From: Escherichia coli
Lineage (GTDB): Bacteria; Pseudomonadota; Gammaproteobacteria; Enterobacterales; Enterobacteriaceae
Assembly: GCF_003334315.1 (NCBI RefSeq)
Contig: NZ_QOWR01000009.1
Reading direction: 5' to 3' (one strand)
DNA length: 64,000 bases
The position numbers and the translations under genes are program-made. The notes under the pieces were generated by a model. The model had not been told where the DNA came from, searched no databases, and saw only the letters and a program-made list of their open reading frames with translations. Below, one piece after another: positions 6,030 to 44,486 of this stretch. Position 1 is the first letter of the stretch. The number at the start of each line of letters is the position of its first letter.

Positions 6030-7030
6030 AAACAGAACGTATTCTCGGTGCTCTTTATGGGCAGGCGTTAGGGGATGCGATGGGGATGCCCTCCGAGCTT
6101 TGGCCACGCAGCCGCGTTAAAGCACACTTTGGCTGGATTGACCGTTTTCTTCCTGGACCAAAGGAGAATAACGCGGCCTGTTATTTTAACCGCGCCGAAT
6201 TCACCGACGATACCTCGATGGCGCTGTGTCTGGCGGATGCGTTACTGGAACGTGAAGGCAAGATCGATCCGAATCTGATTGGGCGTAATATTCTCGACTG
6301 GGCGCTGCGTTTCGACGCCTTTAACAAAAACGTACTTGGTCCGACCTCGAAGATTGCGCTTAACGCCATTCGCGACGGTAAACCCATTGCTGAACTGGAA
6401 AACAACGGCGTGACCAACGGCGCAGCGATGCGCGTCTCGCCATTAGGTTGTTTGCTTCCGGCGCACGATGTTGATTCCTTTATTGATGATGTGGCGCTGG
6501 CGTCCAGCCCGACCCATAAATCCGATCTGGCGATTGCAGGCGCGGTAGTCATCGCATGGGCGATTTCTCGTGCCATTGACGGAGAAAGCTGGTCAGCGAT
6601 TGTAGATTCACTGCCTTCAATTGCGCGACATGCACAGCAAAAACGCATCACTACCTTCAGCGCCTCACTGGCAGCACGTCTGGAGATTGCGCTGAAAATT
6701 GTGCGCAATGCCGACGGCACCGAATCCGCCAGCGAACAGCTTTACCAGGTCGTTGGCGCAGGTACCAGCACTATTGAGTCCGTTCCGTGCGCCATTGCGC
6801 TGGTTGAACTGGCACAAACCGACCCGAATCGCTGCGCCGTCCTGTGCGCTAACCTTGGCGGCGACACAGACACCATCGGCGCTATGGCGACGGCGATTTG
6901 CGGCGCGTTGCATGGCGTTAACGCTATCGATCCTGCATTAAAGGCGGAACTGGATGCGGTAAATCAGCTTGATTTCAACCGCTATGCCACAGCGCTGGCG
7001 AAATATCGTCAACAACGGGAGGCGGTATGA
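6026..7030 (+). CDS. yegU: ADP-ribosylglycohydrolase family protein
   Basis: 334 aa; start overlaps the yegT stop by 4 nt (translational coupling). Confidence 0.85.
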   Translation: MKTERILGALYGQALGDAMGMPSELWPRSRVKAHFGWIDRFLPGPKENNAACYFNRAEFTDDTSMALCLADALLEREGKIDPNLIGRNILDWALRFDAFNKNVLGPTSKIALNAIRDGKPIAELENNGVTNGAAMRVSPLGCLLPAHDVDSFIDDVALASSPTHKSDLAIAGAVVIAWAISRAIDGESWSAIVDSLPSIARHAQQKRITTFSASLAARLEIALKIVRNADGTESASEQLYQVVGAGTSTIESVPCAIALVELAQTDPNRCAVLCANLGGDTDTIGAMATAICGALHGVNAIDPALKAELDAVNQLDFNRYATALAKYRQQREAV

Positions 7031-7992
7031 GCGGCGCTCGATTACACACGCTGCTGCCTGAATTAACCTCGCGTCAGCCGGTGATGGTCGTCGGCGCGGC
7101 GGTCATTGATGTGATCGCCGACGCTTATGCCCTCCCCTGGCGTGGGTGCGATATCGAACTGAAGCAGCAGAGCGTTAACGTTGGCGGCTGCGCACTGAAT
7201 ATTGCCGTGGCGTTAAAGCGCCTCGGCATCGAAGCGGGTAATGCCTTGCCGCTCGGTCAGGGCGTGTGGGCGGAGATTATTCGCAACCGGATGGCGAAAG
7301 AGGGGTTAATCAGCCTGATCGATAACGCCGAAGGCGATAACGGCTGGTGTCTGGCGCTGGTTGAGCCGGATGGCGAACGCACTTTTATGTCATTCAGCGG
7401 TGTGGAAAATCAGTGGAATCGCCAGTGGCTGGCGCGATTAACCGTTGCGCCTGGCAGCCTGCTCTATTTTTCCGGTTATCAACTGGCCTCGCCCTGCGGC
7501 GAATTGTTAGTGGAATGGCTGGAAAAGCTGCAAGACGTGACGCCGTTTATCGATTTTGGCCCACGTATCGGCGATATCCCGGACGCATTACTGGCGCGGA
7601 TCATGGCCTGTCGACCTTTAGTATCACTCAATCGTCAAGAGGCTGAGATTGCCGCCGAACGTTTTGCTTTATCCGCAGAGATAACAACACTTGGCAAGCA
7701 ATGGCAGGAGAAATCTGCCGCGCCGTTGATCGTTCGTCTCGATAAAGAGGGTGCATGGTATTTCAGCAACGACGCTTCTGGCTGCATTCCGGCATTTCCA
7801 ACGCAAGTTGTAGACACCATTGGGGCGGGCGACAGTCATGCAGGTGGCGTACTTGCCGGGCTGGCCTCTGGTCTGCCACTGGCGGATGCCGTATTACTGG
7901 GCAATGCAGTGGCGTCGTGGGTTGTCGGGCATCGGGGCGGTGATTGTGCGCCAACGCGCGAGGAACTACTCCTCGCACACAAAAACGTATAG
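7027..7992 (+). CDS. yegV: PfkB/ribokinase-family sugar or nucleoside kinase
   Basis: 321 aa with the GAGD motif near the C-terminus; 4-nt overlap with yegU. Confidence 0.85.
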   Translation: MSGARLHTLLPELTSRQPVMVVGAAVIDVIADAYALPWRGCDIELKQQSVNVGGCALNIAVALKRLGIEAGNALPLGQGVWAEIIRNRMAKEGLISLIDNAEGDNGWCLALVEPDGERTFMSFSGVENQWNRQWLARLTVAPGSLLYFSGYQLASPCGELLVEWLEKLQDVTPFIDFGPRIGDIPDALLARIMACRPLVSLNRQEAEIAAERFALSAEITTLGKQWQEKSAAPLIVRLDKEGAWYFSNDASGCIPAFPTQVVDTIGAGDSHAGGVLAGLASGLPLADAVLLGNAVASWVVGHRGGDCAPTREELLLAHKNV

Positions 7993-8712
7993 ATCGCTGC
8001 GACAGTGGCTAATGCTGTACTCAATAGGCCGTTGCTGTTGGTCAAGCGCCACTTGCTTGATCACCAGCACCGGTATTTTGCTATCTAACTGAATATGTGA
8101 CTGAAACTCGGCATCCGGCATCCGGGCGCTAACGCGGGAACGTGTACGTTGTGGGTAAATGTGCTGGCTGCGGAAATAGTCATAAAGTGAAATCCCGATG
8201 GCATCAACATCATGAATTAAATGCGCCGGAACCCACGATTCCTCAATCGATACCGCTTCTTCATCGACATAGCGAATACGCTTAAGCAAAAAGACATCAC
8301 TTCCTGCTTCGACCGCCAGCTGCTGCGCGACTTCTTCGGGACATTTCACGACACGCTTGTTAACCCATAGCGTATCGGGCTTTTTCCCGCGCAATACCAC
8401 CTGCTGAGAAAAACCTCGCGCTTCTTTCAACGAGTATTCGAAGATGTTGTTGATCTGCGTGCCGTAACCGCGCGAACGCGTCACCACACCCTCTTCTTCC
8501 AGCGCCTGCATCGCCTTGCGCACCGTAATGCGCGAAACGCCGGTTAACTGACTTAAATCACGCTCACCGGGCAAAATATTGCCATGCTCCAGCACCCCGC
8601 TGCGCACGGCATTTTTTACCGTTTCGGCAAACTTAATATAAAGCGGCGTGTTATCCGCAGCTAAAATACGCTCGTTCAGTTGGGCAATCAGCTGGGTATG
8701 CGCTTGTTCCAT
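7966..8712 (-). CDS. yegW: GntR/HutC-family transcriptional regulator
   Basis: 248 aa; N-terminal winged-helix region (...LPGERDLSQLTGVSRITVRKAMQAL...) and a UTRA-like C-terminal part. Confidence 0.85.
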   Translation of the reverse strand: MEQAHTQLIAQLNERILAADNTPLYIKFAETVKNAVRSGVLEHGNILPGERDLSQLTGVSRITVRKAMQALEEEGVVTRSRGYGTQINNIFEYSLKEARGFSQQVVLRGKKPDTLWVNKRVVKCPEEVAQQLAVEAGSDVFLLKRIRYVDEEAVSIEESWVPAHLIHDVDAIGISLYDYFRSQHIYPQRTRSRVSARMPDAEFQSHIQLDSKIPVLVIKQVALDQQQRPIEYSISHCRSDLYVFVCEE

Positions 8713-38891: not shown

Positions 38892-40573
38892 GCCTCGTCC
38901 CTCCATGGTAGTCGTAACGTTATTCGGGTGTAACTATCAGGCTCACAGGCGACGCTTATTCCATAGTCATCGCCAAACCGTTCACGTAAACGCTTATCCA
39001 CCAGATTCATCCCCAGCCCACTGGCATTGGTTACCGGTTGATACAAACCGGCATTGTCTTCGATCTCCAGCATCAAATGTTGCCCCTCACGTCGGGCGCT
39101 GATTGCCACTCGCCCTGTATCCAGCAGTTGTGATGTCCCATGTTTAATGGCGTTTTCCACTATCGGTTGCAGGGTAAACGCGGGCAATTGCTGCTGGGAT
39201 AATTCTTGCGGAATAGCAATGTTGACCTGCAACCGCGACTGGAAGCGCGCCTTTTCAATTTGCAGATAAGCATTCACATGTTCAATTTCGTCGGCGAGAG
39301 TAACAAACTCCGAAGGCCGCTTTAAGTTTTTGCGGAAAAAAGTGGAAAGATACTGCACCAGCTGGCTGGCCTGTTCGCTGTCGCGGCGGATCACCGCTTT
39401 AATGGTGTTAAGCGCATTAAACAAAAAATGGGGATTCACCTGGGCGTGAAGCAGTTTGATCTCTGACTGGGTGAGCATCGCTTTTTGCCGCTCATATTGC
39501 CCGGCAAGGATCTGCGCCGAAAGCAATTGCGCAATCCCCTCACCCAACGTGCGGTTGATTGAACTGAATAAACGGTTTTTGGCTTCATACAATTTGATGG
39601 TGCCCATCACCCGCTGATTTTCACCACGCAACGGAATTACCAGCGTCGACCCCAGTTTGCATTGCGGATGCAAAGAGCAACGGTAAGGTACTTCGTTGCC
39701 ATCAGCGTAGACCACTTCACCGGTTTCAATCGCTTTTAAAGTATAAGTTGAAGAAATCGGTTTGCCGGGTAAATGGTGGTCGTCACCAATTCCGGTAAAG
39801 GCCAGCAATTTCTCTCGATCGGTAATCGCGACTGCACCAATATCCAGTTCCTGATACAGCACCTGAGCCACTTTCATGCTGTTCACTTCGTTAAACCCCT
39901 GGCGCAAAATGCCTTCCGTCGAGGCTGCCACTTTCAGCGCAGTGGCAGAAAAAGCCGAAGTGTATTTTTCAAACATCGCGCGTTTATCGAGCAATATACG
40001 CATAAACAGCGCCGCGCCGACGGTATTGGTGACCATCATTGGCGCAGCAATATTACTCACCAGACGCACCGCATCTTCATAAGGTCGGGCGATCGCAAGG
40101 ATGATCAGCATTTGCACCATTTCAGCGACGAACGTGACGGCACCGGCGGTAATGGGGTTAAAGACTTTATCAGTGCGCCCGCGGCGGATCAGGATGCTGT
40201 GTACCAGGCCACCGAGTAATCCTTCAACGATGGTCGAGATCATGCAACTTAACGCGGTCATGCCCCCCATCGAATATCGATGTAAGCCGCCGGTCAGCCC
40301 AACCAGCCCACCGACGACCGGACCGCCGAGTAAGCCGCCCATTACCGCGCCTATCGCACGGGTATTGGCAATAGAATCGTCAATGTGCAACCCAAACCAG
40401 GTGCCCATGATGCAGAAGATGGAAAAGACGATGTAGCAGAGAAATTTATGCGGCAGACGAACCGTGACCTGCATTAACGGTATGAATAATGGCGTTTTAC
40501 TCATTAACCATGCAATGACTAAAAAAACGCACATCTGCTGAAGCAGCAGCAACACCAGATTAAAATCGTACAT
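38888..40573 (-). CDS. btsS: Sensor histidine kinase (LytS family; 5TM-Lyt, GAF, His-kinase domains)
   Basis: 561 aa from MYDFNLV; stop overlaps the btsR start. Confidence 0.9.
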
Positions 40574-40794
40574 ACCCGCAAACCACACTTCCCTTTAAAA
40601 CGCGTAACATACATTGCCTGCGTTTAACTTTCTTTGAACTCTTGCAGAAAAATGAGAATTCGTGAGTACGATCACTCAAAATCGCCTGGCAAAAATAAAA
40701 TCACCCTATAGATGCACAAAAAACGGGCAAAACTACCTGGTTCGCAAAACTGCGTCTAAAGTTAAACCGGGACCTCGCGAGCAAGGGTGAGACG

Positions 40795-41526
40795 ATGGCG
40801 CTTTACACAATTGGTGAAGTGGCGTTGCTTTGTGATATTAATCCTGTCACGTTACGCGCGTGGCAGAGGCGTTACGGATTGCTGAAACCGCAACGGACAG
40901 ACGGCGGTCATCGGCTGTTCAACGATGCCGATATTGACCGGATCCGCGAGATCAAACGCTGGATCGACAACGGCGTGCAGGTCAGCAAAGTTAAAATGCT
41001 GCTCAGTAATGAAAATGTTGATGTGCAGAACGGCTGGCGCGATCAGCAAGAAACATTACTGACTTACCTGCAAAGCGGCAATCTACATAGCCTGCGAACG
41101 TGGATCAAAGAGCGCGGTCAGGATTACCCCGCCCAGACACTCACCACACATCTGTTTATTCCTCTGCGCCGACGGCTTCAGTGCCAACAACCGACTCTCC
41201 AGGCGCTGCTGGCGATCCTCGACGGCGTACTGATCAACTACATCGCCATTTGTCTGGCTTCGGCACGTAAAAAACAGGGTAAAGATGCGCTGGTGGTTGG
41301 CTGGAATATTCAGGATACCACCCGTCTGTGGCTGGAGGGCTGGATTGCCAGTCAACAAGGATGGCGCATTGATGTCCTCGCCCACTCGCTCAATCAACTA
41401 CGCCCTGAACTATTCGAAGGCCGTACATTGCTGGTGTGGTGCGGTGAAAATCGAACCTCCGCCCAACAGCAGCAACTCACCAGTTGGCAAGAACAAGGCC
41501 ATGATATTTTCCCACTCGGCATTTAA
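40795..41526 (+). CDS. mlrA: MerR-family transcriptional regulator (activator of csgD)
   Basis: 243 aa; N-terminal MerR helix-turn-helix (YTIGEVALLCDINPVTLRAWQRRYGLL). Confidence 0.9.
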   Translation: MALYTIGEVALLCDINPVTLRAWQRRYGLLKPQRTDGGHRLFNDADIDRIREIKRWIDNGVQVSKVKMLLSNENVDVQNGWRDQQETLLTYLQSGNLHSLRTWIKERGQDYPAQTLTTHLFIPLRRRLQCQQPTLQALLAILDGVLINYIAICLASARKKQGKDALVVGWNIQDTTRLWLEGWIASQQGWRIDVLAHSLNQLRPELFEGRTLLVWCGENRTSAQQQQLTSWQEQGHDIFPLGI

Positions 41527-41584
41527 TGATTCGTTAACAAATGCGCTTTACTGTACAATCCTTTCGTTAACATAAGGAGTGCAT

Positions 41585-41692
41585 TATGCGCATAGCTAAA
41601 ATTGGGGTCATCGCCCTGTTCCTGTTTATGGCGTTAGGCGGAATTGGTGGCGTCATGCTCGCAGGTTATACCTTTATTTTGCGTGCTGGCTA
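41585..41692 (+). CDS. yohO: Small membrane protein (35 aa)
   Basis: [35 protein letters not shown], with a strong AAGGAG Shine-Dalgarno; its 3' end overlaps the convergent yehW by 19 nt. Confidence 0.75.
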
Positions 41693-42405
41693 AGCGCCTG
41701 CACCAGCCTTTCAAACAGGCGGTCTGCGATGATCGCCGCCAGTGCCACCAGTAACGCCCCCTGGATCACATACGCGGTATTAAATCCGCTAAGCCCGATG
41801 ATGATGGGCGTACCCAGCGTGCTGGCCCCTACCGTTGAGGCGATCGTCGCCGTACCAATGTTGATAATCACCGAAGTTCGCACGCCCGCCAGAATCACCG
41901 GAGCCGCCAGCGGTAGCTCGACCTTACGCAGTCGCTGACCACGACTCATTCCCATACCTTTCGCAACTTCTGTCACGCTGGCATCAATCGCTCCCAGCCC
42001 GGCAAGTGTCGCCTGCAGGACGGGCAGCACACCGTAAAGGATCAAGGCGATAATCGCTGGTTGCAGACCAAAGCCGATCACCGGAACGGCGATCGCCAGC
42101 ACTGCGACGGGCGGAAAAGTCTGTCCAACGGCGGCAATAGTTTCCACCAGTGGGCGAAATTCCGCGCCCCACGGGCGAGTGACAGCAATTCCGGCACCAG
42201 TGCCAATGATCACCGCAAACAAACTCGAAATTCCCACCAGCCAGAAATGAGCCAGTGCCAGAGCTGCAAAACTTTCTTGCTGATAAACGGGTCGTGGCAG
42301 TTGTGGGAACAAGGCAGCAAACAGCGGCTGGCTGTAAGGCAGCCAGAAAATCAGCGCCACAAACAGAGCAATGAGCCAGAACAGCGGATCGCGCAACATC
42401 TTCAT
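41674..42405 (-). CDS. yehW: Osmoprotectant (glycine betaine) ABC transporter permease
   Basis: 243-aa polytopic permease, last gene of the osmF-yehYXW operon. Confidence 0.9.
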
Positions 42406-42409
42406 ACGC

Positions 42410-43336
42410 TTACGCCTCCACCAGCAGATCCTGAAAATGCAGCGTGCCGCAAGGCTGGCCCTGCATGTTCACCACCGGCAGCACCTCGCATCCCCGCGCA
42501 ACAAACAGAGAGAGCGCATCGCGTAGCGTCATCTCTTCTGCCAGTGCCTCACCATCTGCTCGTTCTTCGCGACGCACGTAATCCGCCACACTACGTAACG
42601 AAAGCAGGCGCACACCCAGTTCACTACGTCCAAAAAACTGGCGGACAAAATCATTCGCCGGACGAGTCAGCATCGTCAGCGGATTGCCCTGCTGCACTAC
42701 TTCACCGTGATCCATCAATACCAGATGTTCTGCCAGCCGTAGCGCCTCATCAATATCATGAGTGACCAGCACAATGGTACGCCCCAGCAAACGGTGAATG
42801 CGCGTCATCTCTTGTTGCAACGCGCCGCGCGTTACCGGGTCCAGTGCGCCAAAAGGTTCATCCATTAGTAAGACTTGCGGATCGGCAGCCAGTGCACGCG
42901 CCACTCCCACACGTTGCTGCTGACCACCGGAAAGCTGATGCGGATAACGCTCACGCAAATTTGACTCCAGCCCCAGTAGCGCCATTAATTCGTCGATACG
43001 ATCGTCAATCCGCGCCCGCGACCATTTTTGTAATTGCGGCACGGTAGCGATGTTTTGCGCCACGCTCCAGTGGGGGAACAGGCCAATAGATTGAATGGCA
43101 TAGCCCATCCGGCGGCGCAACTCCAGTACTGGCAGCGAGCGAATTTCTTCTCCGGCAAAGCGGATCTCTCCGCTGTCATGCTCCACCAGGCGGTTAATCA
43201 TTTTCAGGGTGGTGGATTTGCCGGAGCCAGATGTGCCAATCAGCACCGAAAAACTCCCTTCCTGAAAATTGAGATTGAGATCGTTAACGGCTTTTTGTGC
43301 GCCGAACAGTTTGCTGACATGGCTAAATTCAATCAT
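42410..43336 (-). CDS. yehX: Osmoprotectant ABC transporter ATP-binding protein
   Basis: 308 aa; Walker [10 protein letters not shown], signature LSGGQQQR, C-terminal CBS-like region. Confidence 0.9.
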
Positions 43337-44486
43337 TACGTTTCACCTTCAGCAGTGCGATAAGCAAATCGAACAGCACGTCGGTAAGCACCGCCAGAAC
43401 AATTACCGGGATCACCCCCAGCAACACTAAATCAATGGCGCTGCTTAGCAGCCCCTGGAAAACCAGCGCACCAAAACCGCCTGCGCCGATTAACGCCGCA
43501 ATCACCGCCATACCTACAGTTTGCACCATCACCACCCGCAGGCTGCGCAGAAATACCGGTAACGCCAGCGGTAACTGAACATGCAGAAAACGCTGCGCCC
43601 CGCTCATCCCCATCGCTCTGGCGCTTTCCAGCACATCGCGCGGGATCTGGTTCAAACCGACTACCACGCCGCGCACCAGCGGCAGCAAGGCATAGAGCAC
43701 CAGCGCAATCAGTGCGGGTGTCATTCCGGTTCCTGCTATGCCGAGCGTCCCCAGCCACGGAAAGGCCGTAACCAGCGCGGCAAGCGGCGCAATCAACAGG
43801 CCAAAGAGCGCCACCGAAGGCACGGTCTGAATCACATTGAGCAGAGAAAAAATTGCCCCCTGCCGAGCAGTGGAAAAGTAGCACCAGATGCCCAACGGCA
43901 CACCAATCACTAACGCAGGCAGCACCGCACCAAACAGCAACGTCAGATGTTGTGCCAGCGCGTCGTCAAACACATCCTGACGGTTGGCGTATTCTTTCAT
44001 TAGTGAGAGATCGTTAAGCGTGCCGGAGTACAGCAACCACAGCGGAATAATGGCAATCTGCATATGCAACAACCAGCGCCACAGCGGATGCGTGGAGATT
44101 CGGCGGATGGCATCGCTACAGGCCAGCAATGCCAGCGCCGCAGCCAGCCAGAAACCACTGCCGAGGCTGGTACGCGCCAGCGCACTGCCATTTTGCGCCA
44201 GTTGGGTCGCCGCCTTTCCAGCTCCCCACACCAGCAATACGAAGACGAATTGCGCCAGAATGAGTGCACAAATGCTGCCTTTTTTACCGGGAATAAAACA
44301 GGCCGTCAGCCAGGCGCAACCAACGCCCACCAGCATCCAGATCGTTTGCGGCCACAGCTGCCAGAGATGACGCCCCTCACCCGAAACTAAACGATTAGGC
44401 GCGTAACTGATAAACGGCAGCGCCGCTGCGATTGCCGTCAGCAACAGCAGCAGCGCCAGAACAGGATTAATACGGAAATAAGTCAC
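43329..44486 (-). CDS. yehY: Osmoprotectant ABC transporter permease
   Basis: 385-aa permease; 8-nt overlap with yehX. Confidence 0.9.

Follow-up and report, generated by a model that had tools for sequence, protein, structure and literature searches.

Two oppositely oriented genes of Escherichia coli, yohO and yehW, run into each other tail to tail, one encoding a 35-residue membrane protein and the other a permease of the OsmF-YehYXW ABC transporter. The question raised by an earlier note on the 64,000-nt stretch of DNA analysed here (the window) is whether this arrangement couples the small protein to the transporter operon or is an incident of compact gene layout.

Layout of the locus and the shared coding stretch

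The window is E. coli chromosomal DNA; it differs from that of E. coli K-12 MG1655 at 3 bases in the 5 kb around yohO, and its coordinates equal those of MG1655 minus 2,174,071, an offset checked for 38929-43929 only. The local order is btsS (-), mlrA (+), yohO (+), yehW (-), yehX, yehY and osmF (Table 1), with yohO and yehW adjacent, on opposite strands and with their 3' ends facing, which is the geometry of a convergent excludon. The earlier note had already recognised the gene as yohO, although its coordinates (41585..41692) were one base low, and its description of a tail-to-tail overlap with the oppositely oriented yehW, at the end of osmF-yehYXW, agrees with the coordinates obtained here. 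The size of the overlap, previously put at 19 nt, has to be corrected to 20 nt, both stop codons included (14 nt from stop to stop), as measured on the open reading frames of the window and likewise in the MG1655 annotation.

Table 1. Features of the yohO/yehW locus in window coordinates
Feature	Position	Strand	Remarks
mlrA	40795..41526	+	upstream same-strand neighbour of yohO; gap 59 nt
Distal direct-repeat copy TTCGTTAACA	41530..41539	+	TTCATTAACA in most genera; 14 nt upstream of the -10 box
Candidate -10 hexamer TACAAT	41554..41559	+	TATAAT in most genera; proposed from conservation
Proximal direct-repeat copy TTCGTTAACA	41563..41572	+	between -10 box and Shine-Dalgarno; GTTAACA conserved across genera
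Shine-Dalgarno TAAGGAG	41573-41579	+	6-nt spacer to ATG; (A/C)AGGAG kept in most orthologous loci
yohO CDS	41586..41693, stop included	+	35 aa; MG1655 2215657..2215764; b4542
yehW CDS	41674..42405	-	permease, final gene of osmF-yehY-yehX-yehW; MG1655 2215745..2216476
Two-strand coding stretch	41674..41693	.	20 nt; yohO codon 30 (bases 2-3) through stop
GC-rich hairpin GGCGGUC-UGCGAU-GAUCGCC	41718..41737	+	7 bp; -12.5 kcal/mol; no U-tract; 5 nt before 41742
yohO Term-seq 3' end	41742	+	MG1655 2215813; 49 nt past yohO stop, 69 nt inside yehW; PMC7815308
Rho termination region peak antisense to yehW	~41924	+	MG1655 2215995; Rho score 5.64, p = 9.4e-16; PMC7815308 file 2

On the yehW side the shared stretch comprises the stop, the five codons before it and two bases of the codon preceding these; the stop is the reverse complement of a T-T-A that spans Phe30 and Ile31 of yohO. 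Because the two coding sequences themselves overlap, any full-length mRNA of either gene spans the shared 20 nt, and a pair of transcripts that both end before the overlap is impossible. Convergent coding overlap is found in two of the eight convergent pairs of the region, yohO/yehW and yegV/yegW, and the presence of the second pair indicates that such overlaps are nothing unusual here. yegV (7027..7992, +) and yegW (7966..8712, -) have 27 nt in common (window 7966-7992) and figure on the published ExcludonFinder list considered below.

yohO as a gene and the block upstream of it

Reading frames of 35 codons are frequent by chance, 54 frames of at least 20 aa overlapping these 3.5 kb, and the frame alone is therefore no proof of a gene; the proof comes from independent tests. 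YohO matches the NCBIfam equivalog NF010225 with 80.1 bits against a curated cut-off of 57 and over its full length (residues 1-35 on profile positions 1-35), which assigns it to the YohO / UPF0387 family, and it carries the label 'protein YohO' in all RefSeq records inspected. Compared with the catalogued member of that family (b4542, NF010225), the gene has the same length, encodes the same single helix, lies at the same place between mlrA and yehW, and differs in nothing. The 701-nt locus was found in 5424 of 5426 complete E. coli genomes. A search with a degenerate DNA pattern for the core peptide, one genome per species, yielded at least 120 loci, and 118 of the 120 matches listed are clear orthologues, distributed over the Enterobacteriaceae, Erwinia and Sodalis. 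Over the 114 distinct orthologous coding sequences among these matches, mean entropy at codon positions 1, 2 and 3 amounts to 0.60, 0.24 and 1.25 bits, the pattern that purifying selection on a protein leaves behind. [quoted passage not shown] It is an already annotated E. coli gene in a catalogued arrangement. In Shigella flexneri, RNA-seq addressing anaerobiosis and FNR reported yohO down about 8-fold (log2 -2.96).

The family appears to be confined to a small group of bacteria. Among 1.84 billion protein cluster representatives, YohO matched no more than 17 clusters, and several of these represent frameshifted or adapter-fused copies; this indicates a narrow enterobacterial family. The metagenome-derived representatives P0002, P0005, P0012 and P0017 are such frameshifted or adapter-peptide fusions (e.g., ...LIHISEPTRPY), and copies of this kind inflate the diversity that cluster counts suggest.

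YohO is strongly hydrophobic (GRAVY 1.58) and is modelled by AlphaFold as a single helix spanning residues 3-33 with a mean pLDDT of 86.9, so it is predicted to be a 35-residue single-pass inner-membrane protein. The identification of yohO as the gene of a 35-aa membrane protein, made in the earlier note, is borne out by the profile match, the RefSeq label and this one-helix model. It displays the features that characterise the family, namely a length of 34-37 residues, one hydrophobic helix and the conserved core; the core is invariant in 22 diverse aligned orthologues, an invariance that is partly by construction, since the core served as the search pattern. One face of the helix carries a conserved small-xxx-small arrangement (G/S18, G22, A26). 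Motifs of this type are typical of transmembrane helix packing, and the conserved face suggests that YohO packs against another transmembrane helix. A Pfam search with YohO returned just a chance-level match to B12D (E = 0.39).

A small and very hydrophobic peptide with an overlapping antisense transcript also recalls type I toxins, and yohO could be imagined as a toxin-like gene restrained by the antisense yehW 3' end. This we regard as barely credible, and the candidate was rejected. An Rfam search at the locus gave only a sub-threshold chance match, with no antitoxin or sRNA family above threshold, and a PADLOC search at yohO found no match; the antisense partner is a coding mRNA that covers the 3' end of yohO and not its start region; and yohO is a single-copy gene with vertical conservation. 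Furthermore, a growth-based screen at 0.1 mM IPTG yielded an ASKA clone over-expressing yohO, and the viability of this clone implies that YohO is not strongly toxic.

The Shine-Dalgarno sequence of yohO had been called one of the strongest in the window, a fair description: its duplex with the 16S 3' end, at -8.8 kcal/mol, ranks 7th among the 57 coding sequences annotated in the corresponding part of E. coli ATCC 8739, where yehW ranks first. The motif AAGGAG by itself means little, as it occurs in the window more rarely than chance would predict (13 times against 20 expected). The Shine-Dalgarno sequence is embedded in a block that in nearly all species reads TTCATTAACA, 14 nt, TATAAT, about 6 nt, GTTAACA, two bases, AGGAG, 6 nt, ATG. 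Bases T1, A2, A4 and T6 of the hexamer (TAnAnT) are invariant in a 25-genus alignment, and the distance from the hexamer to the ATG is fixed in nearly all species among the matches listed. We infer that TACAAT is the -10 box of yohO's own promoter; transcripts would then begin near 41566 and carry a leader of about 20 nt. This promoter would have a poor -35 region, the best match being TTAACA at 14-nt spacing; a simple promoter scan made no call at the -10 site, and the supplement of a SMRT-Cappable-seq study, searched for a mapped yohO start, does not mention the genes of the locus. A promoter-like site on the minus strand (41611-41583) was discarded, as one match was found where 1.1 were expected.

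Around the putative -10 box, TTCGTTAACA forms a perfect 10-nt direct repeat with a spacing of 33 nt, and both RTTAACA copies are kept in most enterobacterial genera, also where mlrA is not upstream. The distal copy is a candidate operator or -35-region element, and the pair looks like an operator pair for some factor. Visual comparison with the MlrA box, OmpR half-sites and the operators of TrpR and LexA gave no convincing match for the block.

A promoter of its own is one of two ways in which yohO could be transcribed. If the gene lacked one, it would be the second cistron of an mlrA-yohO operon: both genes lie on the same strand, the terminator scan found no terminator-like site in the 59-nt gap between them, the Term-seq tables (PMC7815308) contain no 'primary mlrA' 3' end, and mlrA lies upstream of yohO in most species among the matches listed. 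Against this stand the invariant -10 box within the gap and the persistence of yohO together with its upstream block in genomes where metG or btsS takes the place of mlrA (loci L035, L095, L120 and L037). In addition, Term-seq records the yohO 3' end at OD 0.4 in LB, a condition in which the sigma-S-dependent mlrA is poorly expressed. We hold it rather unlikely that yohO depends on mlrA transcription entirely; read-through from mlrA and an internal yohO promoter can both exist, and read-through probably adds to yohO expression. The start of mlrA itself harbours a hairpin followed by a U-rich run (window 40799-40833, +, within the first 39 nt), as found by the terminator scan, and a published Term-seq 3' end, MG1655 2214904, equals window 40833; it was recorded in LB at OD 2.0 as ORF-internal, 38 nt from the mlrA start, and may reflect premature termination or attenuation.

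Transcript ends at the junction

Published Term-seq data (Adams et al. 2021, eLife, PMC7815308, supplementary file 1) list the 3' end at MG1655 2215813 as 'primary yohO, antisense yehW' in all three growth-condition sheets, with 861 reads in LB at OD 0.4 and 1115 in LB at OD 2.0, as compared with about 49,000 for the neighbouring yehS. The yohO RNA is thus antisense to at least the final 69 nt of yehW. The same tables hold no 3' end of a yehW transcript. ExcludonFinder (Nucleic Acids Res 2025, PMC12288877) places yohO-yehW among the 165 convergent excludons that recur in half or more of 58 MG1655 RNA-seq sets, so transcript overlap is documented by two published sources and also follows from the coding overlap. 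The claim that the layout permits antisense contact is supported on both counts.

The mapped end is not that of an intrinsic terminator. A scan for an intrinsic or bidirectional terminator (GC hairpin plus U-tract) found no site at the yohO/yehW junction; the hairpin just upstream of the end is probably an exonuclease block. A Rho termination region peaks further downstream on the same strand, at a position that is approximate, the Rho score being computed over 800-nt windows (PMC7815308). With its 'primary / antisense' class, a GC hairpin without U-tract and a bicyclomycin-sensitive region downstream, yohO shares the properties of the Rho-terminated, hairpin-trimmed antisense 3' ends described in that study; the trimming step would be our extension to this locus.

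Comparison across genera revealed no conserved RNA structure at the junction. In the covariation analysis of the hairpin at 41718-41737, 68% of cells were paired, equal to shuffles and not beyond slid controls or the yehW coding constraint. Structure was likewise not conserved across the 25-genus alignment, with a covariation term of -0.32, and a long-range fold on the plus strand in E. coli (z = -2.99) was rejected, as that alignment contains neither conserved structure nor covariation. The minus-strand fold of 41500-41700 is no better than shuffles (z = -0.06).

On the opposing strand, DirectRNA-seq with and without bicyclomycin places a Rho termination region within osmF, at about window 45350 (-; MG1655 2219421), with a score of 3.27 and p = 4.4e-7. 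A Rho region in the first gene of the opposing operon implies that few polymerases reach yehW under those conditions. In LB, much of the osmF-yehYXW transcription may halt before yehW. A genomic SELEX table for an extracytoplasmic-stress sigma factor, which we take to be sigma-E, records a weak peak (4.0, type D) inside yehW, between yohO and yehX, at U00096.2 coordinate 2214150.

Conservation of the overlap and the case for regulation

Among the matches listed, the tail-to-tail overlap is present in 105 of the 108 species with adjacent yohO and yehW. In Sodalis a 10-nt gap separates the two genes, and in two further loci yehW is apparently broken or contains Ns; only Sodalis among these matches has shortened YehW so that the overlap breaks, which speaks for some selection. 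Most often in this set the overlap measures 26 nt (61 loci) or 20 nt (38 loci), while 5 loci have 23 nt and 1 has 17 nt; the range of 17 to 26 nt arises because the length of the YohO tail alone varies (34 to 37 residues). Wherever the yohO start is clean, in 101 loci among the matches listed, the yehW stop occupies the identical position in yohO (codon 30 bases 2-3 and codon 31 base 1). The two codons encode Phe (rarely Val or Ile) followed by Ile, xTY-ATy, and read as TAA or TGA on the other strand. Conservation of the overlap is accordingly explained by a yehW stop locked in two conserved yohO codons, and regulation is not needed to explain it.

The variability of the two tails indicates a constraint from one side. 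Residues of the YohO tail vary by 0-0.97 bits, those of YehW just before the overlap by 2.0-2.45 and those of YehW inside it by 0.4-1.7, and the YohO tail motif F/I-I-V/L-R/H is retained without a neighbouring yehW, in Erwinia and in Cedecea-like genomes. On the simplest reading of these alignments, YohO's own sequence need would set the end of YehW and its last residues. It is nevertheless possible that the layout or the YehW tail is under some selection, since a stop could arise earlier in the variable YehW linker and yet the overlap is kept in 105 of the 108 species. A protein search with YehW recovered close relatives only, at least 78% identical.

The neighbourhood of yohO is stable but not fixed. 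The gene adjoins yehW in about 90% of the species sampled among the matches listed. It stands without adjacent yeh transporter genes in Erwinia (L022, L040, L068), in Cedecea-like genomes (L039, L047, L063, L108) and in Escherichia sp. MOD1-EC7003 (L065), and bglX adjoins yohO in four Cedecea-like genomes and in L065, where mlrA-yohO is followed by bglX and the whole osmF-yehYXW operon is missing. Upstream, metG replaces mlrA in Entomohabitans, Mangrovibacter and a related metagenome-assembled genome, and in Klebsiella spallanzanii (L037) there is no mlrA between btsS and yohO. The variants of MOD1-EC7003 and K. spallanzanii represent natural controls for any coupling hypothesis.

The association with yehW and the conserved helix face invite the idea that YohO serves the OsmF-YehYXW transporter as an accessory or regulatory subunit, by analogy with KdpF in KdpABC or AcrZ with AcrB. 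AcrZ, KdpF, CydX and MgtS are small single-helix E. coli proteins that bind larger membrane complexes, and several of them are co-transcribed with their partners. YohO resembles them in its size, its one helix and its strong ribosome-binding site, and in having come to light through tagging, MS or ribosome profiling; those proteins have known partners, and YohO, unlike them, is convergent to its neighbour. Convergent orientation precludes co-transcription with the transporter genes, yohO is retained in the genomes listed above that lack these genes at the locus, and a sequence search against solved structures (E up to 1) found no relative of YohO. A subunit role would therefore be very improbable.

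A selected excludon, in which colliding polymerases or cutting of the RNA duplex by RNase III would make YohO and the betaine transporter mutually exclusive, has more in its favour: the ExcludonFinder entry, the antisense RNA over the end of yehW and the wide conservation of the overlap. Like the convergent excludons in that catalogue, the pair has 3'-overlapping transcripts, and here even the coding sequences overlap; a classic excludon, however, includes reciprocal repression, whereas yohO-yehW is known by overlap only and its layout is explained without regulation. The locked stop codon accounts for the conservation; the same promoter block, Shine-Dalgarno and tail accompany yohO where the yeh operon is absent (L065, Erwinia and Cedecea-like genomes); conserved RNA structure is lacking; and both units are weak in published data. 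In addition, the transcript on the yohO strand extends about 230 nt beyond the stop before Rho ends it, and the opposing operon is Rho-terminated inside osmF. Given weak expression and Rho termination on both sides, collisions should be rare, and we consider such an excludon unlikely, with a limited share of our confidence. Quite doubtful, too, is the broader notion of a selected overlap in which the yohO promoter, maybe via the RTTAACA pair, would send antisense RNA or polymerases into yehW and so tune the transporter, or in which YohO would dock on YehW or YehY.

The most plausible description, and in our view a likely one, is that yohO is an ordinary gene, expressed on its own, whose overlap with yehW is frozen and incidental. 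It would be transcribed from its own conserved -10 promoter, probably with a contribution of read-through from mlrA, and it is translated from its strong, conserved Shine-Dalgarno sequence. Its 3' end is fused tail-to-tail with yehW throughout the Enterobacteriaceae, with neither intergenic space nor an intrinsic terminator, and its transcript runs into yehW. Transcription would be terminated by Rho inside yehW, in the region further downstream on the same strand, and exonuclease trimming back to the GC hairpin would then leave the stable end at 41742, just after it. The overlap would be a frozen piece of compact gene layout and antisense pairing a by-product, whose effect should be at most small because both units are weakly expressed under the conditions measured. 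Regulatory coupling of yohO and yehW is possible, and the evidence leans against control of OsmF-YehYXW by the overlap or by YohO.

Public annotation or papers already covered the yohO gene and its translation, the membrane location of its product, the 3' end of its mRNA and the overlap of this mRNA with the yehW transcript. What is new is descriptive only: the depth of conservation of the overlap, the position of the yehW stop inside the Phe-Ile codons and the promoter block with its repeated RTTAACA. If the overlap or YohO did control OsmF-YehYXW, an orphan small protein would gain a function, and if the overlap were a selected device or YohO docked on the transporter, the gene of a 35-residue protein would regulate an adjacent ABC transporter across the Enterobacteriaceae. 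As it stands, yohO/yehW offers a clean example of one gene dictating where its neighbour ends, with a stop codon written on the back of two conserved codons, and yohO emerges as a gene that carries its own conserved putative promoter block with an unexplained repeated motif.
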